Source of the DNA: Bacillota bacterium
Lineage (GTDB): Bacteria; Bacillota; Clostridia; Christensenellales; JAEXRW01
Assembly (NCBI GenBank): GCA_023454175.1
Contig: JAEXRW010000028.1
Coordinates: forward strand, 2,200-66,199
DNA: 64,000 bases
Direction: 5' to 3'
Positions 4,367 to 62,862 of this stretch are shown piece after piece. Position 1 is the stretch's first letter. Each line of letters starts with the position of its first letter. The position numbers and the translations under genes are program-made. The notes below the pieces were generated by a model that saw only the letters and a list, made by a program, of their open reading frames with translations, was not told where the DNA came from and searched no databases.

Positions 4367-4506
4367 AAATCCCTGATAAATGCCAGATGCAAGGTAAAGA
4401 ATGATAGTGAACCAACAATCCGGGCAACGTTACAGATGGCAGCAAACGCCACGGACGGGATGATCGTTACGAACTGGAATAATTGTTACGACGGGAGAAT
4501 GGACGC

Positions 4507-5424
4507 GTGTGGACGGAACCGATAGCACCGATGGAACCGCTGGTACGGGAGGAGCCATTTGACTCCCCACTGCACCTTTTCCAGGTGAAATGGGACGGGG
4601 TGCGGGTACTGGCGTATGCAACGGGCGAGGGGATCCGCCTGATCAACCGGCGGCTGAACGAGCGGACAGAGCAGTACCCCGAGATCACCGCGGCGCTTTC
4701 ATCATTACCCGCAGGGACTGTCATAGACGGAGAAGTGATCGCATTGGGGGCGGACGGGAAGCCGAGTTTCCCGCAGGTGATGAGGCGGGACCAGCTGCGT
4801 TCAAAAAACAAAACGGCCGGCGCGGCCGCCAGCCTGCCGGTGCATTACATGGCGTTTGACATGTTATGGCACGGCGGGAAAGATATCATGCACGAGCCAT
4901 TGACGGTGCGGCAGAAGATATTACAGGACAGCATTCAACCAAACATCACCGTGCAGCTGGTGGACAGCATCGAAACGGAAGGCATCGCGCTTTTCCGCGC
5001 CGTGGAGGCTGAGGGAATGGAGGGGGTGGTGGCGAAGGTGAAGGACAGCCGCTACCTGCCGGGGCGCAAGACGGAGCTGTGGCAGAAGATGAAATGCTGG
5101 CGGGAGATCACGGTATGGGTGTGCGGATGGGAATACGAGGGGCCGCGCATCCGCTCACTGCTCGTTGGCGCGGAGGAGGACGGGGAGATGCGCTTTGCGG
5201 GGAACGTGAGCAGCGGTATCACGCAGAAGCAGTGGAGCGCATTGAAAGAATATCTGGAGGGAGTCAATCCACCGGAACAGGAGTGCCCGTTCGGCGGAGT
5301 AAAGAAAATGCCAAACGTACGGTGGGCGAGGCCGGAGATACGGATCAGGACACGTTATCTGGAGTGGACGGAGGATTTGAAACTGAGAAATCCCAGTGTT
5401 ATGCAATTGATAATTGATAATTGA
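4507..5424 (+). CDS. ligD: ATP-dependent DNA ligase (LigD ligase-domain-like, NHEJ)
   Basis: QVKWDGVRV contains the KxDG adenylation motif I, and the overall nucleotidyltransferase/OB layout fits. Start is uncertain among GTG 4507, ATG 4531 and TTG 4483. The last six codons and the stop are encoded by the heptad repeat element. Confidence 0.75.
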   Translation: MWTEPIAPMEPLVREEPFDSPLHLFQVKWDGVRVLAYATGEGIRLINRRLNERTEQYPEITAALSSLPAGTVIDGEVIALGADGKPSFPQVMRRDQLRSKNKTAGAAASLPVHYMAFDMLWHGGKDIMHEPLTVRQKILQDSIQPNITVQLVDSIETEGIALFRAVEAEGMEGVVAKVKDSRYLPGRKTELWQKMKCWREITVWVCGWEYEGPRIRSLLVGAEEDGEMRFAGNVSSGITQKQWSALKEYLEGVNPPEQECPFGGVKKMPNVRWARPEIRIRTRYLEWTEDLKLRNPSVMQLIIDN

Positions 5425-5601
5425 TAATTGAGAATTGCGGAATGCCTGCGGCATGATCCTATTACCCTGCGAGGGGGCTCTCTCCCTCAGTCGCCATGCG
5501 ACCCCATTGTGCCGCAAGCGGCCCATTTGTCGCTTGGACGACAGCCCCTCTCGCAAACGCGCGCAACGCGCGGCAGAGGGAGCTTAGTGACCCCGCAGGG
5601 G
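5404..5601 (+). repeat. mosaic intergenic repeat element (AATTGAT heptads x4, TTGCGGAATGCCTGCGGCATGATCC hairpin, CCATGCGACCCC module, nested palindrome CCCTCT-cgcaa-ACGCGCG-caa-CGCGCG-gca-GAGGG)
   Basis: Direct reading. The heptads encode the last residues and the stop of the ligase gene. Downstream modules recur at 18350-18460 and 60690-60775. Confidence 0.7.
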
Positions 5602-5767
5602 TATTCTTCAGCCAAGCGATCCTCTTGGCCGTAACAGGATACCGCCCATTGACAGCTATACAGGTAACTATCAAACTAAAAATGTGTTGGGATAAAGAAA
5701 AAGGGTATTTGTTAATTGAAAATAATAGGTTATAAACGTTAACTTCTTCTTGAAGGGAGGGTGAAGC

Positions 5768-6649
5768 ATGAACGCCAACACCATCACGATCGAGGGGAAA
5801 GAGGTATGCATCACGAGGCCGGAGAAAATGCTTTTCCCGGCCATCGGGGCGAGCAAGAGCGACCTGATCGAGTATTATATCCGGATGGCGCGGTACATCC
5901 TGCCGTGGCTGCACAACCGGCCTTTCTCGATGGAATCCTTCCCGGATGGCGTTGAGGGCAAACACTTTTACCAGAAGCAGCGGCCGGAAGACGCGCCGGA
6001 GTGGCTGGAAGGAATCACACTGCCCTCGGAGAAGCGGGGGCACCTGGACTGGTGCTTTGTGAACGACACAGCGAGCCTGGTTTATATGGCGAACCGGGCG
6101 AATATCCAGACACACGCGTGGTTCTCCCGTGCGCCGAGGCTGGACGAGCCCGACATCGCGGTATTTGACCTGGACCCTTCCGGGAACACGGGGTATGCCG
6201 ACGCGGTGGAGGCGGCGCGGCTGATCAAGATCATCCTCGATGAGATGAAGGTGACGGCTTTTCCCAAGACTTCGGGCGCGACGGGCGTGCATATCGTGAT
6301 CCCCATCGAACCGACGCCCTTTGAGAAGGTGCGGGAGTACCTGGGGAAGGTGTGCAGGATGGTGGAGAAGGCGCACCCGGACCGCTTCACCACCGAACGG
6401 ACCATCAGCAAACGTGGGGACAAGGTGTACCTGGACGCGGTACAGAATGCCCGGGCCAAGACGATCCCCTCGCCCTACAGCGTGCGGGCCACGGCGACCG
6501 CCACGGTATCCACACCCGTGACGTGGGACGAGCTGCTCATCCAGGGGGTACGGCCCGAGATGTTCACCATTCGTAATATCGAGGAGCGGGTGAAGCGGAT
6601 CGGCGACCTTTTCGCGCCGGTGTACCAGATGAGGCAAAAAATCAGTTGA
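5768..6649 (+). CDS. NHEJ polymerase/primase domain protein (LigD Pol-domain-like)
   Basis: AVFDLDPSG and KTSGATGVHIVIP are typical of the archaeo-eukaryotic primase-like LigD polymerase domain. RBS AAGGGAGGG is present. The stop TGA lies inside the first AGTTGAG heptad. Confidence 0.75.
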   Translation: MNANTITIEGKEVCITRPEKMLFPAIGASKSDLIEYYIRMARYILPWLHNRPFSMESFPDGVEGKHFYQKQRPEDAPEWLEGITLPSEKRGHLDWCFVNDTASLVYMANRANIQTHAWFSRAPRLDEPDIAVFDLDPSGNTGYADAVEAARLIKIILDEMKVTAFPKTSGATGVHIVIPIEPTPFEKVREYLGKVCRMVEKAHPDRFTTERTISKRGDKVYLDAVQNARAKTIPSPYSVRATATATVSTPVTWDELLIQGVRPEMFTIRNIEERVKRIGDLFAPVYQMRQKIS

Positions 6650-6757
6650 GAGTTGAAAGTTGAGAGTTGAGAGTTGCGGTATGCAAAGGGATCACTCCTT
6701 CAGCCTCCTTCGTCGGCAGCTCCCTCATCTGAGGGAGCCAAGATGGCTCTGTACTAG
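6644..6757 (+). repeat. mosaic intergenic repeat element (AGTTGAG heptads x4, then TTGCGGTATGC)
   Basis: agttgagagttgaaagttgagagttgagagttgcggtatgc. The first heptad contains the stop of the LigD-pol gene. Followed by cctcatctgagggag hairpin. Confidence 0.7.
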
Positions 6758-7874: not shown

Positions 7875-8459
7875 ATGGACAAACAGGAACTGGAGGCATG
7901 CCTTTCGACGCTGGACAGGGGCGATTTCATCGAGCGGAAATACAGGGAATATGCCGTCATCGACGCGCCGCTGCGAATCGGACACGGGCAGACCATCTCG
8001 CAGCCGAGCCTGGTAAAGTACATGACGGAGCTGCTGAACCCCGAAAAGGATTCACGGGTACTGGAGGTGGGGACGGGGAGCGGATACCAGACGGCCATCC
8101 TAGCCTGCCTGTGCGATGCGGTCTACACCATCGAACGGATCGAGGAACTTTCCAAAACCGCGGAGAAGCGGCTGGCCGATATGGGATACCGCAATATCCA
8201 TTTCTTCATACGGGACGGGAGCAAGGGACTGGCGGAACACGCGCCCTATGACCGGATCATGGTGACGGCGGCGGGGGGGAGCATCCCGAAGGAATTGCTG
8301 GAGCAACTGAAGCCGGGCGGGAGGATGGTGATACCGGCGGGGCCGCGGGAGGTGCAGGACCTGTACCTCGTGACGAAGGACGGGGATGGGAGCATCCACA
8401 GGGAAGTCGTGGAGAAGGTACGCTTTGTGGAGCTGAAGGGAGAATACGGATTTAATTAA
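7875..8459 (+). CDS. pcm: protein-L-isoaspartate O-methyltransferase
   Basis: GHGQTISQPSLVKYM, VLEVGTGSGYQTA (SAM motif I) and RIMVTAAGGSIPKEL. RBS GGGAGGG before ATG 7875. The longer listed ORF 7269..8459 is a read-through extension antisense to aadK. Confidence 0.8.
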   Translation: MDKQELEACLSTLDRGDFIERKYREYAVIDAPLRIGHGQTISQPSLVKYMTELLNPEKDSRVLEVGTGSGYQTAILACLCDAVYTIERIEELSKTAEKRLADMGYRNIHFFIRDGSKGLAEHAPYDRIMVTAAGGSIPKELLEQLKPGGRMVIPAGPREVQDLYLVTKDGDGSIHREVVEKVRFVELKGEYGFN

Positions 8460-8575
8460 TAATTAATAGTTAATAATGAAGAATTTTGGTGAGCCCTTCG
8501 GGGGTGAATGCAATTGCCTTTCCGGGGCTAACTAGTTGACAGTTAATAGTTTCGGAATGCCGGGGGACAAGGGTT
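8453..8575 (+). repeat. mosaic intergenic repeat element (TAATTAA/TAGTTAA heptads, GAGCCCTTCGGGGG hairpin, second heptad block, then TTTCGGAATGCCGGGGG)
   Basis: Begins at the pcm stop codon. Confidence 0.65.
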
Positions 8576-11845: not shown

Positions 11846-12214
11846 AGTCCCTCGGGATTAAAATCCCTTGGAGCTAAAGCTCCTTTGGAGTTTAACGACT
11901 TTGGGACAATAGGATCGGTTGGTTTGAACGAGGACAGACACTAAAACGAGATTCACCATGCGGCAGGGGGGAGCGGAAAACCGCTCCTTTCCATTGGGTC
12001 AAACGCGCTTCTCAGTCCGAACTGCAAATGCCAAAAAACCGGATAAATGGGCTGCGAGGAATGTAAAACACTGCGGAATGCCCTGACGGGCATTAATGTT
12101 GGTCCCAACCATGCAAAGAATCAATACTCCCTGATTGAAGAATGACTGCAACACATATATAATCAATATATACCTCCATTACCACACTGTGTTAATCACA
12201 GCCTGATTGAGGAA

Positions 12215-18132: not shown

Positions 18133-18480
18133 CTTTCCAGGGGGGACAGCGTGCGCTAGTGCGCCCGCGGGCAGTCCCCCCTAGATACCTCGTTGCACCC
18201 TGCGGGTGCGGCCACTCGGATACCCCCCTGCCTATAAGGTATGCCTCGCACCGCACATGTCGCTGCTCGGCATGGAATTTATAGTTGGAATTTGACAGTT
18301 GCGGTAAGTGATAAATTTACAAGTAGGAAGATCACTCTTTCCGGCGCAAAGCGACCCCATAGACCCCATAGGGCAGCTAGCGGCCCATTTACGGTTCATT
18401 TTGGGCCACATTGCGCCACTCTCCCCATAAGCGCGCGGCGCCCGAGGGAGGCAAGATGGTCCTACGGGGATGAAGCAGTC
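18131..18480 (+). repeat. composite mosaic repeat region (GC palindromes, heptad block tatagttggaatttgacagttgcggtaag, GCGACCCCAT...AGCGGCCCATTT...AAGCGCGCGGCGCCCGAGGGAGG module)
   Basis: Module order and sequence parallel 5495-5600. Confidence 0.55.
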
Positions 18481-29172: not shown

Positions 29173-29886
29173 TCACTTTTCCTGCCTAAGATATAATCGT
29201 CTTATTTTGTCGTCAATTTCGTTCAGCTTCTCTGGGGCTAATTTAAAACCTGCAAATCTGTCCGATAGTGACTTGGGAAAAACGATTCTCATTTTGCTTA
29301 GAGCACATAACTGATTAATTTTAGCAACGGAACCCTTATTTAAGTTTCTTAGCTCCCTTTCGTCCCTTTTCAATTTCTTTTCTAATATAGTCGTGTCTTT
29401 CCCCTGATTTGTTAATACTACAATCTGTTCTTTTGTTTTTGCGATCAGTTTTTGATAATCTTCGATTTCGCTCTTAAATATTCCTCTCCCTAGAAATACT
29501 CCATTATTGGGGTCGATATCTTCTTCTGACTTGTCATCGTCTAGGGAAGTTAACGGAACTACCATAATCGTTCTATTTGTCTTTGCGTTATTATTTTCAA
29601 CCACGAGGCAATAATGGAGCCCACCATCTTCGCTACCTATCTTGAATCCAAGTTCTGCCTTTAAAACATTTCCTCTTTCATAGTATATTAAGCTCTCATA
29701 ATTAAAGGATCTTTCGTTTGGAAGATATTTGCCCGCCCAATCATTTAACCAATATACTAATTTCCTAGCTACATCAAAACTTATATCATGCAACATTGTA
29801 TCTTTTAAGACTCCAAGAACCTTATCAATATTATCCTCTAATTCTTCTTGGCATGTCATTGCAGAAATCTTTGCTTGGTTGGCCAT
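29173..29886 (-). CDS. extended MazF/PemK-fold protein (237 aa) in a low-GC islet
   Basis: Core ERGNVLKAELGFKIGSEDGGLHYCLVV...NRTIMVVPLTS matches the MazF/PemK signature (RGdi..v.f...GsE..g.RPalVv...vvvPiTs). It carries an extra ~70-aa N-terminal and ~100-aa charged C-terminal extension. Gene is ~33% GC. No upstream antitoxin ORF. Confidence 0.5.
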   Translation of the reverse strand: MANQAKISAMTCQEELEDNIDKVLGVLKDTMLHDISFDVARKLVYWLNDWAGKYLPNERSFNYESLIYYERGNVLKAELGFKIGSEDGGLHYCLVVENNNAKTNRTIMVVPLTSLDDDKSEEDIDPNNGVFLGRGIFKSEIEDYQKLIAKTKEQIVVLTNQGKDTTILEKKLKRDERELRNLNKGSVAKINQLCALSKMRIVFPKSLSDRFAGFKLAPEKLNEIDDKIRRLYLRQEK

Positions 29887-31246: not shown

Positions 31247-32755
31247 ATGGAAGGCGGAATCATCGCTCTGATCGTGACAGGCTCGGTCATCCTATTCATC
31301 CTTTTTATCATGTTCCTCTCGCGGTACAAGAAGTGCCCATCGGACAGGATCATGGTGGTGTACGGCAACGTGGGGCGGACGAAGGACGGCTCCCAAAGGA
31401 GCGCCAAGTGCATCCACGGCGGCGCGGCCTTCGTGTGGCCCATCGTGCAAAGCTACCGGTTCCTCTCCCTGACGCCGATCTCCATCGAAGTGCTGCTGCG
31501 CAGCGCGCTGAGCAAGCAGAACATCCGCATCGACGTGCCTTCACGCTTCACGGTGGGTATCTCCACCGAGCCGGGCATCATGCAGAACGCTGCGGAACGG
31601 CTGCTGGGACTGGCGCTGCCCGATATCCAGGAGCTGGCCAAGGACATCATCTTCGGCCAGCTGCGTTTGGTCGTAGCGACGATGGACATCGAAGAGATCA
31701 ACACCGACAGGGACAAGTTCCTGGCGGCGGTATCCAACAACGTTGAAACAGAACTCAACAAAATCGGCCTGAGGCTCATCAACGTGAACGTGACGGACAT
31801 CAACGACGAATCGGGCTATATCGAGGCGCTGGGCAAGGAAGCGGCGGCCAAGGCCATCAACGACGCGAAACGGACCGTAGCGGAGAAGGACAAGGAAGGC
31901 GCCATCGGCCAGGCCAACGCCAACAGGGACCAGCGCATCGAGGTCTCGGCGGCGAACTCCCGCGCCATCGAAGGGGAAAACACCGCCAAGATCACCATCG
32001 CAAACTCGGACTCGGAACGGCGCGAGAAGGAGGCCGAAGCCCTGCGGCGCGCTACCGCGGCGGAGAAGGTGCAGACGGCCATGGCGCTGAAGGAATCCTA
32101 CGCGGCAGAAGAACAAGCCGAATTGCAGCGTGCGGCACGCGAAAAGGCGACGCGGGAAGCCGACATCATCATCCAGGCCGAGATCGAAAAGCGCAGGATC
32201 GAGATCTCCGCGGAAGCCGAGGCGGAACAGCTGCGGCGGAAGGCGCGCGGCGAGGCGGATGCCATCTTTGCACAGATGGAGGCAAGGGCACGCGGCATCA
32301 AGGAAGTGCTGAACAAGCAGGCCGAGGGCTTCGAGGGGATCATCCATGCGGCGGGCGGAAACGCGGACGACGCGGTGCACATGATGATCGCGGACAAGCT
32401 GGAAGCGCTGGTGGAAAAACAGGTCGAGGCTATCAAAAATATCAAGATCGACAAGATCACGGTGTGGGAGAACGGGCAGAACAAGGACGGGCAGACGTCC
32501 ACGGCTTCGTTCCTCTCGGGGCTGCTGAAATCCATCCCGCCGATGAACGAGATGTTTGACATGGCGGGGATGACGCTGCCGACATACCTGGGGGAATCCA
32601 AGGACAAGGCAAAGGCGGCGGACACAAAGAGCGTCAAAATCGAAGCCGAGGCGACGGTGAAGGACGCGGAACCCGAAGAGAAGGATCCGGAGCCGGACCA
32701 CCCGGCCAAGAAGAGGCTCGTGGACCCGCCCAAAGACAAAGGCGACTGGAGATAG
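31247..32755 (+). CDS. floT: flotillin (SPFH domain) protein
   Basis: N-terminal TM, SPFH domain, and long Ala/Glu-rich flotillin repeat region. About 500 aa like FloT. NfeD-flotillin operon arrangement. Strong terminator downstream. Confidence 0.7.
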   Translation: MEGGIIALIVTGSVILFILFIMFLSRYKKCPSDRIMVVYGNVGRTKDGSQRSAKCIHGGAAFVWPIVQSYRFLSLTPISIEVLLRSALSKQNIRIDVPSRFTVGISTEPGIMQNAAERLLGLALPDIQELAKDIIFGQLRLVVATMDIEEINTDRDKFLAAVSNNVETELNKIGLRLINVNVTDINDESGYIEALGKEAAAKAINDAKRTVAEKDKEGAIGQANANRDQRIEVSAANSRAIEGENTAKITIANSDSERREKEAEALRRATAAEKVQTAMALKESYAAEEQAELQRAAREKATREADIIIQAEIEKRRIEISAEAEAEQLRRKARGEADAIFAQMEARARGIKEVLNKQAEGFEGIIHAAGGNADDAVHMMIADKLEALVEKQVEAIKNIKIDKITVWENGQNKDGQTSTASFLSGLLKSIPPMNEMFDMAGMTLPTYLGESKDKAKAADTKSVKIEAEATVKDAEPEEKDPEPDHPAKKRLVDPPKDKGDWR

Positions 32756-32765
32756 TGAATATAAA

Positions 32766-32798
32766 AAAAGAAAAACCCTGAGGGGTTTTTCTTTTTTT
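32766..32798 (+). terminator. rho-independent terminator after flotillin gene
   Basis: aaaaaccctgaggggttttt followed by ctttttttag. Confidence 0.8.
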
Positions 32799-33015
32799 AG
32801 TTGACAGTTGACAGCTAACAGTTAACAATAGCGGAATGCATAGGGAGCATACGACCCTTACGGGTTGATTGGGGTTGCCTCCCATTGGGGCATGAATTTG
32901 CAATCCTGTGGGAGTAAACCCCACAGCCGTCGTTTCGCTACGCTCACTACGGCAGCTCACCCTACAGTGGATGCGATGCACCCACTTGGGGAGCCATGCG
33001 ACGGGTCCTGGGGCG
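32799..33015 (+). repeat. mosaic intergenic repeat element (AGTTGAC/AGCTAAC heptads, then AATAGCGGAATGC, GGCAGCTCACCCTA module, GGGGAGCCATGCGACGGGTCCTGGGG module)
   Basis: Follows the flotillin terminator. Modules are shared with 58600, 52296 and 2435. Confidence 0.65.
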
Positions 33016-41760: not shown

Positions 41761-41805
41761 TTTAATTGAGAATTGAGAATTAGGTTAGGGTTGGAGGGAA
41801 AAGTC
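41761..41805 (+). repeat. short heptad block (AATTGAG x2) abutting the cytidine deaminase remnant
   Basis: tttaattgagaattgagaattaggttaggg. Same orientation as all other copies even though the flanking genes are on the - strand. Confidence 0.5.
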
Positions 41806-42072: not shown

Positions 42073-42263
42073 ATTACCCTATAACGGATACGTATTGAAC
42101 AGCGTAACGTGACGGAATCTGCCGTCTATCCCTTCCGGGGGGTGCGCTGCAAACACGGTACGCCTATCAGCCTTCATTCGGAGGCGGTTCCCCCAACAGG
42201 GGAGCCATGCAATTGTTTATTGAAAGAACAGGCATGGCTGCCTGTTCTTTTGCGCAAGAATAT

Positions 42264-43814
42264 TCAGACCTGCCGGGAGCGGACCTGGGAGACGATGCGG
42301 TCCCTGCCCTCAAAACTCATCATGGAGAGCGCCTCCTGCGGCTGCAGGACGCCCGCGCCCAGCAGCTTCAGGGCCAGGTCGTTTTGGTATATGGTGGTAT
42401 ACGGGGTGCTCTTCTGCACCTGGACGGAGACATCAAAATCGATATCCCGCGCGCTTTCGCCTTTTCGCAGCATGGCGCCGGAGAGGACCGTGGTGCGTTC
42501 CCCCTCCTCCCCGACGATGCGGAAGGTGCGCGCCTCGGTATAGTCCTCCGCGATGAGCGCGATGATCATTTTCACCAGCTGCTCGAAACCATCATACATC
42601 TGCTCGATGAGCAGGCGGCTGCGTTTGTTGCCCGCCTCCTGCAGGGCCATGATGGCGCTGGCGGCTGTGACACCCATGCCGCCCTCCCCACGGGTGAACT
42701 GGTTCTGCCCCGACTCGTCCTTGATGGACTGGATCTTGCCGTAGAAATGCTGGAGCACGTGGGGGGAAAGGGGCGCGGGCTGGAACCAGCGCAGGGAGGC
42801 GTCATCGATACGCGAGCCCCGCACGATCTCCTTCGACCAGTCGGAAAGCGCATCCTCGTCCAACTCCGCCCCCCTATTCACCAGCAGCTTCACCTTGCCG
42901 GACATGAGCGCGTTTTTCAGGATGATCTGGTCCAGCCTGTCCGCGTAGGACTGCAGGTTCTTATAGATATCCACGATGCCGAGGCCGACGGGCTGCCCGT
43001 CCAGCGGATAGAGCGGCTCCAGCAGGAAGGGGTACATCCCGTGGGCGTACATGCCCTGGGGCCTGCCGTCCTCGCTTTTCTCCAGCAGGACCCGGCCGCA
43101 GAGGAGGGCCATATGGACGGAGGGCCTGCCATCCGTGAACGTCTTGTACCAGTACTCCATGACCATGACATCGTCCTCGTCCCGGGCGGCGTCCCCGGGG
43201 ATGTTTTCGCGCCTGTAACCATCGGCCTTTACCAGATCCACGGCATGCGGGTACCTCGCCTTCAGCCACTCGCTATGATAGAAGGCGAACTTGAAGCACG
43301 CGCGCCCGTCCTGAATGGAGGGGCATTTGGGGTCGTAGAGGAAATTCTCCACGTCCCAGCTGCGCACGCTGATATCGCCGAGGCCGCCGTACAGGTCCCG
43401 GTCCCAGTAGACCTCCTGGACACTGGCGCCTTTTTTCAGGGCGGCGCGGCATTTCGAGCGGTAGGTGGCGCGGTAATGGCGCCGCTTCAGGATGTATTTG
43501 ATGACGTCGGCCAGGCTGACGGCGAGGGCATCGTCGCCCGGCTCCTCCCCCAGCAGGACGGGCTCGGGGTAGCTGTCCATGATATCGGACAGGATGCTTT
43601 CGAGGGTAGAGAACAGTACGGGCGTTACCGGGCGCGGCTCATCCTGCTCGCGCTTCGCGACGCCGTTCCAGTGGTTGGCGCGCCAGAACTCCTCATTCTC
43701 CCGGCACTTCTGCCGGAAGGGGCGCGTGCCCTCGTAGAATTCATCAAAGAGCGTATAGGCGCGGGCGATGAACTCCTCATCCTGCACGGGCAATTTATGG
43801 TTGACAGTGGACAT
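42264..43814 (-). CDS. phage portal protein (SPP1/Gp6-like family)
   Basis: 516 aa, overall portal-like. RBS AGGAGGTATC. Monocistronic, with no adjacent phage genes. Confidence 0.65.
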   Translation of the reverse strand: MSTVNHKLPVQDEEFIARAYTLFDEFYEGTRPFRQKCRENEEFWRANHWNGVAKREQDEPRPVTPVLFSTLESILSDIMDSYPEPVLLGEEPGDDALAVSLADVIKYILKRRHYRATYRSKCRAALKKGASVQEVYWDRDLYGGLGDISVRSWDVENFLYDPKCPSIQDGRACFKFAFYHSEWLKARYPHAVDLVKADGYRRENIPGDAARDEDDVMVMEYWYKTFTDGRPSVHMALLCGRVLLEKSEDGRPQGMYAHGMYPFLLEPLYPLDGQPVGLGIVDIYKNLQSYADRLDQIILKNALMSGKVKLLVNRGAELDEDALSDWSKEIVRGSRIDDASLRWFQPAPLSPHVLQHFYGKIQSIKDESGQNQFTRGEGGMGVTAASAIMALQEAGNKRSRLLIEQMYDGFEQLVKMIIALIAEDYTEARTFRIVGEEGERTTVLSGAMLRKGESARDIDFDVSVQVQKSTPYTTIYQNDLALKLLGAGVLQPQEALSMMSFEGRDRIVSQVRSRQV

Positions 43815-53529: not shown

Positions 53530-54000
53530 TCAGCATTCAAAGAATTCCCCTCTGCGTATCCCATAGTTTCTCCAGATGAAATCATCGGCGGCGGCCAACG
53601 AGTAGAAGGGCCCCGATACATAGCTGCACCCGGAGCTCCCGCTATAATCCACGGTGTAGTAACAGAGCCACCGCGACGAGTACTGGTCAAACTGCCGGCA
53701 CAGATAGACATACAAAGCACGCCGGGAGGGACCGGGCACGATGGGCACGATGGGGAATATCGGGAAGATCGGCCGTGGGAACGGACGTATCGGACGTATC
53801 GGGCGTATCGGTCGTATCGGACGAATAGGACCAGGGCCAGGACGAGGACCAGGGCCAGGACGAGGGCCGGGACCAGGACGAGGGCCGGGACCAGGACGGG
53901 GGCCAGGACCGGGGCGAAAACCGGGACCGGGACGACGCTGTGCGATATCCCCGGGCAACCCATCATCATTACCGGGCGTCCAGTCATTATTATCAGGCAT
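53530..54000 (-). CDS. proline-rich tandem-repeat protein with Cys/Tyr-rich C-terminus
   Basis: RBS GGAGG 7 nt before ATG. Repeats (RPGPGP)x5 and (IRP)x5 then (FP/IVP), followed by LYVYLCRQFDQYSSRWLCYYTVDYSGSSGCSYVSGPFY. The opposite-strand ORF 53741..54004 has no RBS. Confidence 0.5.
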   Translation of the reverse strand: MPDNNDWTPGNDDGLPGDIAQRRPGPGFRPGPGPRPGPGPRPGPGPRPGPGPRPGPGPIRPIRPIRPIRPIRPFPRPIFPIFPIVPIVPGPSRRALYVYLCRQFDQYSSRWLCYYTVDYSGSSGCSYVSGPFYSLAAADDFIWRNYGIRRGEFFEC

Positions 54001-56858: not shown

Positions 56859-56890
56859 AAAACGAGGAGGTTGATGCCTCCTCGTTTTTT
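56859..56890. terminator. bidirectional rho-independent terminator between surface-protein gene (+) and terminase small subunit gene (-)
   Basis: aaaacgaggaggttgatgcctcctcgtttttt. A-run on the 5' side and T-run on the 3' side. Confidence 0.8.
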
Positions 56891-57428
56891 ACCCGGATTG
56901 ACCTTCAGGCACGGGCATAGACGTGATGACATTGACGACGGAGGGGGCGCCCTGGCTCCGCCGCAGCTTTTCCTCCTCGATCCTCCGCTTCCAGGCATCG
57001 GGCAGAAGGTCAAAGAAACGCTCCAGCTTTTCCAGCGCGCGGAACCGGTCACAGAGCCGCAGCCGGGGGACGCCCTGCGCGTTCAAACCGAGCTCTTCGA
57101 TGATGCGGCCGTCCACCTTGTCCGAGGACAGGAGGCGGATGAAGGCGGCGCCTTCCCCGTCGGTGCCGAACTCCAGGAAATCCGTCATATCGGAAAAGGC
57201 CATGGCCTCGTACAGCTTCAGCACGTCCAGGCTTTCGCACCAGAGCTGCTGGCGCATCAATTCTTTCTGCTCATCCAGGTACGCCTTCACATAGGGCTTT
57301 TTCATCATCTCATAGACATAATTCCGCTTGTATCCGGCTCTTGCGGCCGCCGCCCTGACATTGAACGACTGGAGATAGTACAGGCAGAAGCGCGCCTGCT
57401 TTTCATTGATCGTTTGAACCGGCATCAC
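56889..57428 (-). CDS. phage terminase small subunit
   Basis: NEKQARFCLYYLQSFNVRAAAARAGYKRNYVYEMMKKPYVKAYLDE matches the HTH/Terminase_2-type N-terminus. Monocistronic and divergent from Ku. Confidence 0.6.
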   Translation of the reverse strand: MMPVQTINEKQARFCLYYLQSFNVRAAAARAGYKRNYVYEMMKKPYVKAYLDEQKELMRQQLWCESLDVLKLYEAMAFSDMTDFLEFGTDGEGAAFIRLLSSDKVDGRIIEELGLNAQGVPRLRLCDRFRALEKLERFFDLLPDAWKRRIEEEKLRRSQGAPSVVNVITSMPVPEGQSG

Positions 57429-57612
57429 CAAACCACCCTTTCACTGCCGGGAGTTCCGGCCGCACCATTTTACAACGGCCGCGCTTGCGGCAGCCTCCCG
57501 CATAAAAACCAACGTGCAGCCGGATGGATGCCTTTCAATTCGTTCATACCAACATAAAGTTCAATGCGCGCGCAGATGCTATGAACGAAATTCAATGATG
57601 GAGGAAATGCAT

Positions 57613-58434
57613 ATGCAGACGGTATGGAAGGGCGCGATCAGCTTCGGACTGATCAACGTGCCGGTGAAAATGGGGGCGGCCACGGCGCGGGAGAGCATCG
57701 CCTTCACCACGCTGCACCGGGAATGCAACACGCCGCTGAAGCAGAAACGCTGGTGCCCCAAATGCGAGCGGGAAGTGGCTTACGAGGAAGTCGCCAAGGG
57801 GTACGAATACGAGCCGGGGAAATTTGTCATCGTGACGGAGGAGGACCTGGAGTCGGTGCCCATCAAGAGCGCAAAATACATCGACATCGTGGATTTCATC
57901 CGGATGGAGGAGGTGGACCCCATTTATTACGACAAGACCTATTACCTGTGGCCCGAGACGGGCGGGGAGAAGCCGTACCTGATCCTGCGAAACGCGATGA
58001 AGCAGACGGGGCGGGTAGCGGTGGCCAAGGTGACCATCCGGGCAAAAGAGTACCTGTGCCTGGTGCGGCTGGTGGGGAATTCGCTGGCGCTGGAGACGAT
58101 GTTTTACCCGGCGGAGGTGCGCTCTGCAAGCGAACTGGGGATAGAACGGCTGGAAACATCCGTCGAGATACGCCCCGTGGAAATGGACATGGCGACGCAG
58201 CTGGTGGAAAACCTCACGGCAGCCTTCCAGCCCGAAAAATACAACGACCGGTACAGGGAAGAACTGCTCAAGCTCATCCGCGCCAAGGTGGAGGGGCGCG
58301 AGGTGGTGGAGGCGCCGGCGGTACCCGAAAAGGCGAATGTGCTGGACCTGATGGAGAAGCTGCGCAAGAGCGTGGAGATGACGAGCGGGAACAGGCCGGC
58401 AGCGCCGATGGGGCAAAACGCAGTTGGAAGTTGA
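57613..58434 (+). CDS. ku: Ku protein (NHEJ DNA end-binding)
   Basis: MQTVWKGAISFGLINVPVKMGAATARESIAFTTLH...YEPGKFVIVTEEDLESV is a canonical bacterial Ku N-terminus. RBS GGAGGAA. The stop TGA lies inside the first AGTTGAG heptad. Confidence 0.85.
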   Translation: MQTVWKGAISFGLINVPVKMGAATARESIAFTTLHRECNTPLKQKRWCPKCEREVAYEEVAKGYEYEPGKFVIVTEEDLESVPIKSAKYIDIVDFIRMEEVDPIYYDKTYYLWPETGGEKPYLILRNAMKQTGRVAVAKVTIRAKEYLCLVRLVGNSLALETMFYPAEVRSASELGIERLETSVEIRPVEMDMATQLVENLTAAFQPEKYNDRYREELLKLIRAKVEGREVVEAPAVPEKANVLDLMEKLRKSVEMTSGNRPAAPMGQNAVGS

Positions 58435-58790
58435 GAGTTGATAGTTGAAAGTTGAAAGTTGAAAGTTAAGGTTTGCCCTGCGGGGGAGATTGAATGGACC
58501 TGCAGGGGTTTTGAAAGTTGAGAGTTGAGGTGAGCACTGCGGGGAGATTCGACAGGCCTGTGGGGAAAACCTCTCAAGCCCCATGCGACTACTGATCGCT
58601 TGGCAGCTCACCCTATAAACGGGTGCATCGCCCGTTCTGGGGCGCCACGCGGTGCGGAGCCTTCGGGGATAATCCATGCGGGGTAATTGAAACTTGATCA
58701 TTCATTGCGAAATGCCTTCGGCATGAACCAAAATAGTTGACAGTTTATAGTTGAAGAGAGCCCTGCGGATGGTTTTAATCATCGAGAATG
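58423..58790 (+). repeat. largest mosaic intergenic repeat region (AGTTGAG/AGTTGAA heptads x6, two CCCTGCGGGGGAGATT hairpin units, CCATGCGAC module, CTCACCCTATAAACGGGTGCATCGCCCGTTCTGG module, second heptad block with TTGCGAAATGCCTTCGGCATGAACC)
   Basis: Begins inside the Ku stop codon. Confidence 0.7.
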
Positions 58791-58975: not shown

Positions 58976-59599
58976 ATGAAAACAAGGCTCATCATCGTAC
59001 GGCACGGGGAGACGGAATACAATACGCAGAAAAAGTACCAGGGGCAGAGCGAATCCCCCCTCACAGAACGGGGAAGGGAGCAGGCGGGGTGCGCGGCGGA
59101 ACGGCTGCGCAACGAGAAGATCGATATCATCTACAGCAGCCCCCTGAGCAGGGCACTGGATACGGCGAAGATCATCCGGGGCCCCAAAAACATTGAGATC
59201 ACGACCGACCGGCGGCTGGCCGAGATCAAATGCGGGGAGTGGGAAGGCGTAGTCTTCGACGAACTGAAGGAGCGCTACCCGCAGGAGATGGATACGTGGC
59301 TGAACCGGCCGACGCTGCACCGGATGCCGGGCGGGGAAACGCTGGCGGATGTGAAGGCGCGGGCGGATGAACTCCTCGCTGAAATACTGCAGAAGCACGA
59401 AGGGGAAACGATACTGATCGTGACGCATGTGATCCTCGTGCTGCTGCTGATGATCCGGTTCGCAGGGGAGAATATCGAAGATATCTGGAGCACGCCGAAG
59501 CAACTGAACGCCTCCATCAACATCGTGGAGGTCGAAGGCGGGAAGGCGACTATCATAACACGGGCGGAGCAGCCGGCGCCATCCATCGTATGGGACTAA
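58976..59599 (+). CDS. histidine phosphatase family protein (phosphoglycerate mutase-like)
   Basis: LIIVRHGETEYN is the RHG motif. 207 aa. Confidence 0.75.
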   Translation: MKTRLIIVRHGETEYNTQKKYQGQSESPLTERGREQAGCAAERLRNEKIDIIYSSPLSRALDTAKIIRGPKNIEITTDRRLAEIKCGEWEGVVFDELKERYPQEMDTWLNRPTLHRMPGGETLADVKARADELLAEILQKHEGETILIVTHVILVLLLMIRFAGENIEDIWSTPKQLNASINIVEVEGGKATIITRAEQPAPSIVWD

Positions 59600-59604
59600 A
59601 CATC

Positions 59605-59708
59605 AATAATTAAGAATTAAGAATTAATAATTTTGGTAAGCCCTACGGGGGTAATTGAGAATTGCGGAAAGCCCTGCGGGGGAGATTATATGACCCGGCG
59701 GGAATGGT
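59605..59708 (+). repeat. mosaic intergenic repeat element (AATTAAG heptads x3, GCCCTACGGGGG hairpin, AATTGAG AATTGCGGAAAGCCCTGCGGGGGAGATT)
   Basis: Begins 5 nt after the histidine phosphatase stop. Confidence 0.65.
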
Positions 59709-60368: not shown

Positions 60369-60523
60369 AACAAACCCTCCTTTATGAAGTTATCCCGGCT
60401 GCTACATGATATGCTTGTGTATTTTCACTGGTGCGTATGAATCCGCGCGTCAAACCGTTACAAATACGGTATTCAAGCGTGCGCTCCTTATAAGAGAAAG
60501 GAGAGCGGGGAGGCAGGTGTATA

Positions 60524-60850
60524 ATGTACAATTTACAATGTACAATTTACAATTGCAGGATGCCCTACGGGCATGGATTTATTCATGGACAGTTGAGACA
60601 AACAAGCGGTGATGGTACCAAGCAGAAGTGAGTGTGTGCGCACACTCACCGATGAAAACACAGGTTGAAGCAGTTAGCTTTCTCTCCCCCAAGCCGCAAA
60701 GCGATCCAAAGGATCGCTTGGGGCGACAGCCCCCCTCATAAACGCGCACTATGCGCGTCAGATGGGGCTAAGATTATGGCATTGTAACAGTTAATTTCAG
60801 GGTAGAGTTGAAAGCCGAAAGTTGTGGTATGCCTAACGGCATGATCGATT
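60524..60850 (+). repeat. mosaic repeat region (GTACAAT/TTACAAT heptads x4, TTGCAGGATGCCCTACGGGCATGG hairpin, nested palindrome module, second heptad block with TGTGGTATGCCTAACGGCATGATCG)
   Basis: Module at 60690-60775 closely matches 5540-5600. The heptads here lack stop codons. Candidate TerL start codons lie in the terminal hairpin module. Confidence 0.6.
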
Positions 60851-62373
60851 CAGGCAGCGTTATGAGTATGAATGCGGCCGGCCTTGACTTGCATAGGGTG
60901 ACCAGGCGATATTTGCCTGCCAGACCCGAATCGTATCTGAAATACCAGGGGGCAAAACAATTGGAGAAGCTGGATATCCGGCTCGGATACACCCCGACAG
61001 AAAAGCAGGCGGTATTCCACCGCAGCACAGCGGATGAAGTATTATACGGAGGCGCGGCGGGGGGCGGAAAGTCCCTGGCCACGGTGATGGAGGCACTGAT
61101 ACGGTGCCTGCGGACGCCGGGGGTATGCGCGTACCTTTTCAGAAGGACGTACCGGGAGCTGGAGGATACGCTCATATCCCAGGCGAGGCGGTTCGTCCCG
61201 CCGGCGATGGGGCGGTATACCGGCTCCAACCACAGCATGGAGCTGGTGAACGGGAGCGTGATGCGCTTCCGCTACTGTGCACGCGACGACGACGTGTACA
61301 GTTACCAGGGGGCGGAAATGCACGTGCTGTGCATCGACGAACTGACCCACTTTTCCAAGAAGGCGTACGACTACCTGAAATCCCGCCTGCGGGCGAATAC
61401 GGAATTGGCCATTAAGCCCGTCGTGCGGTGCACCTCCAACCCGGGGGGCGTGGGGCATGCGTGGGTGAAGGAGCATTTCGTGGACCGGGGGGAGCCATAC
61501 ATCCTGCACGCCGTGAACGTCCGTTCGGATATCTTCAAAACCACCCAGACAAGGACCATCCAGTACATCCCGGCGAAGGCGACGGATAACCCGCACATCG
61601 GCCGGGACTACATCTTTGAGCTGGAGCAGAAACCGCAGGCGCTGCGGGACGCATTATTACACGGAATATGGACGACATTCGAGGGGCAGGTCTTCTGCGA
61701 GTGGCGGGACCAGCCGGAGCATTACAAGGACGGCAAATGGACGCACGTGATCGAGCCTTTCGCCATCCCGAAAAGCTGGAGGCGCTACCGGTCGTTTGAC
61801 TTCGGGTATGCGCGGCCTTTCTGCGTGCAGTGGTGGGCTATTGATAATGACGGACGTAGTTACCTGTATCGGGAGTGGTACGGGTGCACGGGGGAGCCGG
61901 ATACGGGGCTGAAGTTATCAGCGGATAAAATCGCGGACGGTATCCGGGAGATGGAATCGGCGGCAGGTGAGGAGGGCATGACAGGGCTGGCGGACCCCTC
62001 CATCTGGGACGGCTCGCGCGGGGAATCCATCGCAGCGCAGATGGAGAAGCGGGGCGTGCATTTCCTCCCGGCGGAGAACGCAAGGCTGCCGGGAAAGATG
62101 CTGGTGCACGAGAAGCTCGCATTTGACAGTGAGGGGCGGCCGGGGATGCAGGTATTCAAAACGTGCAGGCACTTCATCCGGACGATTCCCGCCCTTACAT
62201 ACGACCCGTACCGGGTGGAGGATGTGGACACACGGTGCGAGGACCACGCATATGACGCGATGCGGTATTTCCTGACGGTGAGCCCTAAGGCGAGGAAGGT
62301 AAAGACGGTTAAAATACCGGTGTATGATCCGCTGAAAGACAACAGGGGAGAGAAAGAAGGGTACTGGGAGTAG
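60841..62373 (+). CDS. phage terminase large subunit
   Basis: Walker A YGGAAGGGKS, Walker B LCIDELTHF, and C-terminal RNaseH-like nuclease with EDHAYDAMRYF. Start is uncertain (ATG 60841, 60862 or 60868), and the candidate starts lie inside an intergenic repeat module. Confidence 0.75.
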   Translation: MIDSGSVMSMNAAGLDLHRVTRRYLPARPESYLKYQGAKQLEKLDIRLGYTPTEKQAVFHRSTADEVLYGGAAGGGKSLATVMEALIRCLRTPGVCAYLFRRTYRELEDTLISQARRFVPPAMGRYTGSNHSMELVNGSVMRFRYCARDDDVYSYQGAEMHVLCIDELTHFSKKAYDYLKSRLRANTELAIKPVVRCTSNPGGVGHAWVKEHFVDRGEPYILHAVNVRSDIFKTTQTRTIQYIPAKATDNPHIGRDYIFELEQKPQALRDALLHGIWTTFEGQVFCEWRDQPEHYKDGKWTHVIEPFAIPKSWRRYRSFDFGYARPFCVQWWAIDNDGRSYLYREWYGCTGEPDTGLKLSADKIADGIREMESAAGEEGMTGLADPSIWDGSRGESIAAQMEKRGVHFLPAENARLPGKMLVHEKLAFDSEGRPGMQVFKTCRHFIRTIPALTYDPYRVEDVDTRCEDHAYDAMRYFLTVSPKARKVKTVKIPVYDPLKDNRGEKEGYWE

Positions 62374-62376
62374 TCT

Positions 62377-62440
62377 GAAATGTACAATGTACAATGGCGG
62401 AATGCAGGCCGAATCCTTATCCGGCACCCTGGCATGGATT
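62377..62440 (+). repeat. mosaic intergenic repeat element (AATGTAC heptads x2, then AATGGCGGAATGCAGGCCG)
   Basis: Begins 4 nt after the TerL stop. Confidence 0.6.
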
Positions 62441-62862
62441 ATATAGCCCTAAGAGTCATCTATGTGGGCATGGAGGGGATATGAAGGTCCGAGCCAAAAA
62501 GTTGGACGATCCTTCTACGAAATACTCAACCCTTACGCCCAGGCTAATTCCGAATAAACATAAGAAGTAATAAAGAACTTTACATTTTTCGACATGGGCA
62601 TTATCCTGTTAGTAGATACTGCATTATCAACCGTATTGTGGAAACCTCTATGTTATCATTGCAGCTTTTCATTAACACGCGGAAGGCACCACAGCGTATA
62701 AAGAATCACCGAAATTAACAGTAAGTACAGGAGCTTTCTTCTGTGGACAAACCAAAGTATAAGAACAAATACATATTCCGCCTGTTTTCATCTCTTATTG
62801 CATTATTCGGTTCCAGGGATACTATAAACTTCAAGAATGTCCGCCCAAAATATATAAAATAT

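Follow-up and report, generated by a model that had tools for sequence, protein, structure and literature searches.

Heptanucleotide arrays at the 3′ ends of genes in a Christensenellales contig

We analysed a 64,000-nucleotide (nt) stretch of DNA from a Bacillota bacterium (GTDB lineage Bacteria; Bacillota; Clostridia; Christensenellales; JAEXRW01; GenBank assembly GCA_023454175.1, contig JAEXRW010000028.1, positions 2,200 to 66,199), here called the window, in which short tandem arrays of seven-nucleotide units lie against the stop codons of genes and, in some genes, encode the end of the protein. We favour, with some reserve, the explanation that these fast-changing arrays form the 5′ module of a hairpin mosaic which is specific to this lineage, lies in transcribed 3′ flanks and resembles the repetitive extragenic palindromic (REP) sequences and bacterial interspersed mosaic elements (BIME) of other bacteria. 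Their supply of stop codons is most likely a by-product of their position and sequence rather than their purpose. The locus provides a clean comparative example of a simple-sequence repeat that overwrites the C-terminal residues of conserved enzymes; the genes are not inactivated, since whichever frame enters the repeat meets a stop there. It bears on the annotation of metagenome-assembled genomes, in which C termini and stops may be repeat-derived and strain-variable, on the evolution of 3′ untranslated regions (UTRs) and protein tails, and on the function of heptanucleotide arrays in bacteria, a question of long standing. The tight clustering at stops and the single-strand orientation are unexplained by current accounts of such repeats.

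Arrays at stop codons

Tandem Repeats Finder and a period-7 scan identified 14 period-7 arrays of 2.5–7 units in the window, all on the + strand, and none has an inverted partner there. The window has a GC content of about 53% and a positive GC skew throughout, and its + strand carries most of the genes. Units take the form ARTTRAN in 12 of the 14 arrays (AATTGAG, AATTGAT, AGTTGAG, AGTTGAA, AGTTGAC, TAATTAA and AATTAAG) and AATGTAC or AATTTAC (AATKTAC) in the other two. The two-unit motif RRTTRANRRTTRA occurs 22 times, compared with 0.46 expected, on the + strand only. All arrays are intergenic, save for overlaps of at most 20 nt with the 3′ ends of open reading frames (ORFs); four of the sites lie between convergent genes, four in co-directional spacers, one in a divergent region (60518) and one between two minus-strand genes (41764). 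No + strand gene ends at either of the last two arrays.

According to Pfam, the genes located 5′ of arrays encode an NYN and OST-HTH protein, an ATP-dependent DNA ligase, a LigD primase-polymerase (LigD-pol), Pcm, an SPFH/Band7 protein, Ku, a histidine phosphatase and a large terminase (TerL). Relative to the first base past the stop, the array starts at −1 for NYN, −20 for the ligase, −6 for LigD-pol, −6 for Pcm, −13 for Ku and +5 for the TerL-like gene. For the phosphatase the start is +1 by a degenerate first unit, or +8 by the first perfect unit, and for the SPFH gene it is +43, with a canonical terminator hairpin in between. Under a null in which each array is placed uniformly within its gap, the probability that at least seven of eight arrays fall within −20 to +8 of a stop is 5.4e-7. 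These offsets, the excess of the two-unit motif and this probability are why we regard as real the association proposed by a first-pass annotation of the sequence, which had named all of these genes except SPFH. The sequences it quoted were also correct (atc agT TGA gag ttg for LigD-pol, gga agT TGA for Ku, and caattgataattgataattga for the ligase tail QLIIDN*). The principal arrays are as follows.

2340–2371, + strand: array AATTAAT/AATTGAG/AATTGAA of about 4.5 units, overlapping the last base of the NYN/OST-HTH stop TAA (2338–2340) in a convergent region
5403–5439, + strand: array (AATTGAT)x3 AATTGAG AATTGCG, encoding QLIIDN and the stop TGA (5422–5424) of the ATP-dependent DNA ligase within 5403–5424
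6643–6679, + strand: array (AGTTGAG/AGTTGAA)x5 ending in AGTTGCGG, encoding the last codon (agt) and the stop TGA (6647–6649) of LigD-pol; the site on which the first-pass annotation centred
8452–8477, + strand: array TTAATTA/ATAATTA/ATAGTTA, encoding the last one or two codons and the stop TAA (8457–8459) of Pcm
32799–32826, + strand: array AGTTGAC AGTTGAC AGCTAAC AGTTAAC, directly after the T-tract of the SPFH/Band7 intrinsic terminator (stop at 32755) and running into AGCGGAATGC and a hairpin
41764–41784, + strand: array AATTGAG x2.5, between the minus-strand portal and DUF2935 genes and preceded by a T-run
58422–58470, + strand: array AGTTGGA AGTTGAG AGTTGAT (AGTTGAA)x3 AGTTAAG, encoding the last three or four codons and the stop TGA (58432–58434) of Ku
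58733–58754, + strand: third short array ATAGTTG ACAGTTT ATAGTTG A, in the Ku–phosphatase spacer and followed by AGAGCCCTGCGG
59601–59665, + strand: array CATCAAT (AATTAAG)x2 AATTAAT AATTTTG, 2 nt past the histidine phosphatase stop TAA (59597–59599)
60518–60574, + strand: stop-poor array AATGTAC/AATTTAC x5 (array part 60518–60555) ending in CAATTGCAGG, then hairpin ATGCCC-TAC-GGGCAT, in the divergent region upstream of the TerL-like gene
62379–62396, + strand: stop-free array AATGTAC x2.5, 5 nt past the TerL-like stop TAG (62371–62373) and running into GGCGGAATGC...GGCATGGATT

Only four genes, namely the ligase, LigD-pol, Pcm and Ku, have their stop and the preceding one to six codons inside the array. 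Thus, the LigD-pol ORF (5768–6649, Pfam LigD_Prim-Pol) closes at the TGA of the first AGTTGAG unit, where the sequence at 6636–6680 reads aaa atc agT TGA GAGTTGAAAGTTGAGAGTTGAGAGTTGCGG. The proposal that arrays supply the stops of the genes they abut was therefore borne out for these four and failed for NYN, the phosphatase and TerL, each of which has its own stop just 5′ of the array. Overlaps between array and ORF measure 1, 6, 6, 13 and 20 nt, and those of 6, 6, 13 and 20 nt span all three frame classes, which fits unselected fusion rather than precise targeting. All stop-abutting arrays are sense to the upstream gene and lie between its stop and hairpins or a terminator. The distance from the stop preceding each array to the next annotated feature is 169–563 nt, and four of the arrays are convergent, with no downstream start.

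Three-frame closure is simple arithmetic, since TGA or TAA occurs in most units and a period of 7 shifts the reading frame from one unit to the next, and nothing suggests that it was selected. The first-pass annotation had argued in this way that three consecutive heptads stop every frame, and 10 of the 14 arrays do close all three forward frames. By contrast, the AATGTAC/AATTTAC arrays at 60518–60555 and 62379–62396 close one frame and none, respectively. They belong to the same family as the others because they share its 3′ junction (described below), both in the window and in two relatives (L164 and L165). A public gene call places a 34-amino-acid ORF at 62376–62480 (locus L162, 11573–11677), starting within the AATGTAC array after TerL (ATG TAC AAT GTA CAA TGG...); this is probably a spurious call created by the repeat.

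TTGA-heptad arrays were found in at least 120 contigs from Cyanobacteria, Bacteroidota, Acidobacteriota, Verrucomicrobiota, Ignavibacteria and others, 120 loci being listed for the pattern. Among the matches listed, an ORF of 100 codons or more is terminated at the 5′ edge by 37 of 109 TTGA-type arrays in other phyla, compared with 6 at the other edge, and arrays of other unit types have a stop on either strand in 28 of 61 cases, approximately the chance rate. The capping of ORFs by stop-bearing heptads is thus widespread and is a consequence of the unit sequence. Stops as a generally selected property of heptad arrays were ruled out by the chance-level rate among the other-type arrays listed and by the stop-free members in the window. 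In several of these phyla the arrays form inverted pairs. Acidobacteriota-like and Bacteroidales contigs (L061, L088, L131, L132, L145, L149, L154 and L158) carry inverted TTGA-type pairs, for example GATTGAG GATTGCG GAATGCG ... CGCAATC CGCAATC CTCAATC, which would fold into long hairpins just past ORF ends, unlike the single-orientation arrays of the window.

The arrays are not assembly artefacts. Over the stretches compared, the window is 100% identical to the 94-kb European Nucleotide Archive (ENA) metagenome contig NODE_168 except for one 36-nt indel at 53855, and Logan assemblies match it as well, arrays included; because these independent assemblies agree across the arrays, we also ruled out hypervariability within the strain. 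The indel lies in a Gly/Pro-rich coding tandem repeat at 53827–53935, where the window and NODE_168 differ by exactly two 18-nt units. It is also the sole difference between the window and the overlapping 13.2 kb of L162, in which the heptad arrays are identical.

Gene ends compared with relatives

All seven ORFs 5′ of stop-abutting arrays have strong Pfam domains up to their C termini, and alignments with their homologues stop no more than a few residues short of the C-terminal end. Among named sequences, the closest homologues of the window Ku, ligase and LigD-pol come from metagenome-assembled genomes labelled Bacillota, Clostridia, Eubacteriales or Christensenellales, and we treat the source as uncultured and Clostridia-like. 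The clearest change is in the ligase, which ends ...LEWTEDLKLRNPSVMQLIIDN* in the window. Its two closest relatives (L164 and L165; 75% identity) end ...LRNPSIIAFLS* and ...LRNPSILAFLS* and stop at a codon of their own (gcg ttt ttg agc tga and ...agt tga); their arrays, of AATGTAY type with a AATTGCGG/GCCCTGCGGG junction, lie 40–45 nt past that native stop. DNA homology between the window and these relatives stops at the codon preceding the array, and the Phe of the family-wide motif PS(I/V)(I/V)xF is an array-coded Leu in the window. We regard this alignment as direct evidence that the array replaced four or five native residues plus the stop.

Ku and LigD-pol show that arrays can persist at a gene end as well as change. 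LigD-pol ends RQKIS* both in the window and in a relative at 90% identity (L003), with the array at the same site (5 units versus 3.5) and a different downstream synteny; most of the 60 orthologous C termini inspected end RQxLPxx*, two residues longer than the window protein. For Ku, a relative at 93% identity (L166) keeps the same order of array, hairpin, array and hairpin, with 5 units compared with 7 in the window. The window protein ends ...PMGQNAVGS*, as opposed to ...PMGQAGAR* in L166, where a t joins the first-unit AG to give the stop TAG; a native ...GS* end is found in many Ku orthologues. The non-homologous end-joining genes themselves are split in the window. The stand-alone ligase and LigD-pol lie together at 4483–6649; Ku, at 57613–58434, is 51 kb from them and falls between the genes for the small and large terminases. 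All three are adjacent in L004, a more distant relative.

At the remaining genes the protein ends are less altered or the same. Pcm ends at the end of its conserved core (..YGFN*; YGW in homologues), and its nearest homologues are 0–8 residues longer. The phosphatase ends ...SIVWD* in the window, with the array 2 nt further on, and ...SVEWD* in L166, which has no array and about 50 nt to a shared terminator; the filled and empty sites do not align past the stop. TerL aligns with viral relatives to residue 519 of 521. Replacement of native C termini, as the first-pass annotation had proposed, is thus supported for the ligase (...LRNPSVMQLIIDN versus ...LRNPSI(I/L)AFLS), LigD-pol, Ku and Pcm, but not for the phosphatase, which has the same ...WD*, or for TerL. 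The same annotation had held that the adjacency would be coincidental if repeat-free orthologues had identical ends; alignment with orthologues found unchanged ends for these last two genes and a different end for at least the ligase.

Arrays therefore change quickly between relatives in unit number, unit type, position, junction and presence. They reshape protein ends, since the ligase relatives keep the native AFLS* end and the Ku junction differs at 93% identity.

The intergenic mosaic and its known counterparts

The 3′ ends of the arrays decay into (A/G)TTGCGG(A/T)ATGC, which is followed by a small GC-rich palindrome of type H1, ATGCC-loop-GGCAT(G)GAT, or H2, GCCCTNCGGGGG. The junction TTGCGG(A/T)ATGC with its palindrome recurs at 6674, 8550, 12071, 32829, 58705, 60553, 60822 and 62395, and the junction occurs without a long array at 12071, 51181, 58705 and 60822. 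In a pairwise comparison of intergenic regions, regions E (32798–33000) and F (58442–58651) align over 219 nt that comprise the array, the hairpins and then the palindrome GGCAGCTC(A/C)CC...GGGG(A/C)GCC followed by ATGCGAC. Hairpins next to individual arrays are listed below.

5440–5456, + strand: hairpin GAATGCC-TGC-GGCATGA of type H1, directly continuing the ligase array
about 8490–8505, + strand: hairpin GAGCCCTTCGGGGGT of type H2, 3′ of the Pcm array and followed by a second short array at 8534–8552
58471–58565, + strand: type H2 hairpins GCCCTGCGGGGG...CCTGCAGGGG and CACTGCGGGG...CCTGTGGGG, enclosing a second array at 58511–58529, an arrangement kept in L166
within 59601–59665, 3′ of the phosphatase array: hairpin GCCCTACGGGGG, then the short array AATTGAG AATTGCGG, then hairpin GCCCTGCGGGGG

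Longer modules are also repeated. The palindrome GGCAGCTCNCC...GGGGNGCC followed by ATGCGAC is found at five sites (2416, 6708, 32950, 42180 and 58600). It represents a second intergenic repeat family, GGC(A)GCTC(A/C)CC...GGGG(A/C)GCC with ATGCGAC (2416–2459, 6708–6745, 32950–33013, 42180–42213 and 58600–58650), which has a variable loop length and usually lies downstream of a heptad array. A 52-nt repeat is shared by 5536–5587 and 60721–60772 at 79% identity. The module CTCGGATACCCCCCTGCCTATAAGGTATGCC...GGCATGGA(A/T)TT lies downstream of the DUF6320 gene in the window (18215–18300) and upstream of LigD-pol in a related species (L003, 1–70); as it adjoins different genes in the two, hairpin modules move between loci. 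Since the junction, the hairpins and the longer modules are common to many sites, the heptads are one module, the 5′ one, in a mosaic of small intergenic repeats.

Rfam covariance models gave no match at the gathering threshold across the whole window. Folding of nine array regions predicted local hairpins only and arrays that are mostly unstructured, with z-scores mostly above −1.7; two scores below −3 are explained by the canonical terminator (region E) and by palindromes (region B). In consensus scans, terminator-like sites were not enriched (7 versus 6.9 expected; 12 versus 7.5). A T-run is missing from most array-linked hairpins, and separate canonical terminators are present at the SPFH and phosphatase genes. 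The array-linked hairpins thus do not fit the pattern of intrinsic (Rho-independent) terminators, in which a GC-rich stem-loop and a U-tract come directly after the gene. A promoter scan of the arrays returned weak −35-like matches (TTGAGA and TTGATA) with no consistent −10 element.

Consisting of head-to-tail copies, being mostly non-coding and changing in copy number or unit between relatives, the arrays fit the class of heptanucleotide long simple-sequence repeats, which is known from other bacteria and of which they are a variant specific to this lineage. In many prokaryotes, long simple-sequence repeats are most often heptanucleotides (Mrazek et al. 2007, summarised in PMC4679880). The closest description concerns direct repeats of the heptamer TAACTGA in marine Beggiatoaceae, some Cyanobacteria and Bacteroidetes (MacGregor 2015, PMC4679880). 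Forward copies of that repeat carry stops in three frames and overlap upstream ORFs by up to 18 nt, with the translation LITDN-; in the BOGUAY Beggiatoaceae genome they overlap the stop of 13 ORFs, and in Microcystis the sets between stop codons have one chromosomal orientation (PMC4679880). Because most TAACTGA sets precede start codons, MacGregor proposed a role in translational regulation (PMC4679880). The window arrays resemble these repeats in their tandem 7-nt units (a single substitution separates the ligase unit TAATTGA from TAACTGA), in their three-frame stops and similar peptide (QLIIDN* here), in their intergenic location and in a copy number that varies in 7-nt steps between strains. 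However, the window contains no exact TAACTGA tandems, its TAATTGA copies having one mismatch per unit, and its arrays abut stops rather than lying just upstream of starts, with 170–540 nt between them and the next gene. Several unit variants coexist in it, including the stop-free AATGTAC, and the 3′ end of each array passes into a GC-rich hairpin junction that is conserved. Unlike the hosts reported there, the window comes from a Clostridia-like lineage of Bacillota, and comparison with orthologues demonstrates C-terminal replacement.

Other families share single features with the arrays. Cyanobacterial short tandemly repeated repetitive (STRR) sequences are heptanucleotide repeats; like the window arrays, they and other long simple-sequence repeats are tandem, lie mostly outside coding sequence, are specific to lineages and have replication slippage as their supposed origin, but they are not known to stand in any fixed relation to stop codons or a hairpin junction. 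REP/BIME of Enterobacteria and BOX elements of pneumococci are mosaics of small palindromic modules, and REP has a 5′ GTAG and an associated RAYT transposase. As in these, the palindromic modules in the window form mosaics in probably transcribed 3′ flanks and intercistronic spacers, vary in number and are potential recombination points, although REP/BIME and BOX are not known to carry tandem heptads. In this one contig, the ATGCC...GGCAT and GCCCTNCGGGG hairpins, with GCGG before them, recur at gene 3′ flanks, and the canonical GTAG was not seen. A scan of Joint Genome Institute (JGI) metagenomes for an array with the TTGCGGNATGC junction recovered one clear family member (L161), the remaining hits being mostly unrelated GC-rich (Acidobacteria-like) palindromic heptad elements. 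Period-7 direct repeats of 3–10 units also form the omega repressor operators (WATCACW)n of inc18 plasmids and the HutP RNA sites (UAG-N4)3, which are read by oligomeric proteins. Those have one conserved unit and a fixed position in a promoter or leader, whereas the window units vary and sit past stops. Inspection of the unit variants ruled out a HutP- or TRAP-like NAG periodicity, NAG being absent from AATTGAT, TAATTAA and AATGTAC.

Competing explanations and neighbouring features

How might a repeat mosaic come to encode protein ends? Elements ordered as array, junction (A/G)TTGCGG(A/T)ATGC and GC-rich palindromes would accumulate in transcribed 3′ flanks in one chromosomal orientation, and an ORF that met an array would be closed within 20 nt in any frame. 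Deletion, recombination or slippage could then fuse an array to a dispensable gene end. Such a fusion would be tolerated because the array closes every frame, and the fused array would from then on supply the stop and up to six residues. We infer that fusion proceeds in this way and that array and upstream gene share a transcript; the hairpins may contribute to the stability of mRNA 3′ ends. Several observations weigh against so passive an origin. It leaves unexplained why, in seven cases, no more than about 12 nt separate the 5′ edge of the array from the native stop although a repeat-rich spacer of 100–500 nt persists downstream. The array stays with LigD-pol in a relative with a different downstream neighbourhood and the 3′ architecture of Ku is conserved, which fits selection for a 3′-UTR function. 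An array is present at 8 of about 26 plus-strand genes and at 0 of about 14 minus-strand genes (Fisher P = 0.034), implying that a strand-specific process is involved, and the array flanked by minus-strand genes only is still + oriented. Furthermore, assemblies of the same strain showed no polymorphism in heptad copy number. The tight clustering at stops and the single-strand orientation keep two other explanations, a functional 3′-UTR module and a mobile element, alive.

The arrays could be 3′-UTR modules that act on RNA and govern stability or the efficiency of termination for the upstream gene, which we consider unlikely but worth entertaining. They might present a single-stranded, C-poor platform of UUGA/UUAA motifs to a multimeric RNA-binding protein, period-7 binding being known from HutP, which recognises UAG-N4 repeats; or they might serve as a spacer and a pad of stops in three frames, at which ribosomes that have read through or shifted frame are halted ahead of stable hairpins. 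The sense orientation of every stop-abutting array, its place between stop and hairpins or terminator, its predicted lack of structure, the retention of array and hairpin with LigD-pol and Ku across species, and the enrichment of repair and dormancy functions among the genes (Ku, ligase, LigD-pol and Pcm) are consistent with such a role. However, the sample is only eight genes, the units differ (AATTGAT, AGTTGAG, TAATTAA and AATGTAC) with no single motif such as NAG kept, and the same gene in relatives has its array 40 nt from the stop or has none. The arrays at 41764 and 60518 lie outside any sense 3′-UTR, and the lack of an Rfam match and a folding signal confined to local hairpins also count against it. 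It is quite unlikely, in our estimate, that array and hairpin are or derive from a non-autonomous mobile element that uses a strand-specific single-stranded DNA mechanism of the REP/RAYT or IS200/IS605 type. Such an element would use the sub-terminal hairpin and insert 3′ of a short target (TTGAT or TTAC), with xxT TGA stops as targets and heptads multiplying at the junction. TTGAT and TTAC are target sequences of IS200/IS605 and occur inside the units; the orientation is uniform on one strand, even for the array among minus-strand genes; the hairpin foot ATGCC...GGCAT is conserved below variable loops; L166 lacks the phosphatase array of the window; and the same modules occur at unrelated loci and in relatives. 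Yet the Pfam-scanned ORFs of the window and a 10-kb extension include no transposase, Y1 (HUH) included, no clean boundaries or target duplication can be defined, the phosphatase sites being unalignable past the stop, and the frame-random ORF overlaps are unlike insertion exactly 3′ of a stop. To our knowledge, elements of the REP/RAYT and IS200/IS605 classes do not create tandem heptads, which also counts against this origin.

A more ambitious proposal, which we find very doubtful, would make heptads and hairpin a dedicated strand-specific 3′-end cassette, mobile or protein-bound, that is recruited to the stops of dormancy and repair genes (Ku, ligase, LigD-pol and Pcm), acts as a universal three-frame stop setting the fate of the mRNA 3′ end and repeatedly rewrites C termini. 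If true, it would represent a new way in which Bacillota couple a repeat element to the termination of translation. At the opposite extreme, the adjacency might be coincidental or an artefact of ORF calling, because any open frame that enters a stop-rich, AT-rich array must end there and spurious ORFs are common at 53% GC (an antisense ORF of 391 amino acids at 5462–6637 is an example). This is extremely improbable: the seven upstream ORFs have Pfam domains and homologues that reach their C termini, the placement probability is as given above, and the same fusions recur in independent assemblies and in relatives. We excluded it on these grounds.

An origin of the arrays from phages was likewise ruled out, as no arrays were found in 25 IMG/VR loci related to TerL (about 200 kb of viral contigs in total). 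TerL relatives from IMG/VR sit in ordinary phage contigs of 35–45 kb. In the window, phage structural genes are scattered over more than 30 kb on both strands (42264–43814, −; 56889–57431, −; 60808–62373, +) and continue beyond the window end (L162, 18991–20196 and 20733–21275). They encode an SU10/P22-like portal, small terminase, large terminase, capsid protein and SU10 adaptor, all of one phage type, and are interleaved with genes of cellular type, which encode Ku, the phosphatase, a SleB-like hydrolase, a GerE regulator and giant surface proteins (LRR/Flg_new and cadherin-like). They could be a scrambled or domesticated prophage, or a system resembling gene transfer agents. Elsewhere, a low-GC (45%) patch at 28–30 kb contains a 237-amino-acid ORF (29173–29886, −) whose residues 70–121 match the N-terminal half of the PemK/MazF toxin domain; the ORF is far longer than a typical MazF.

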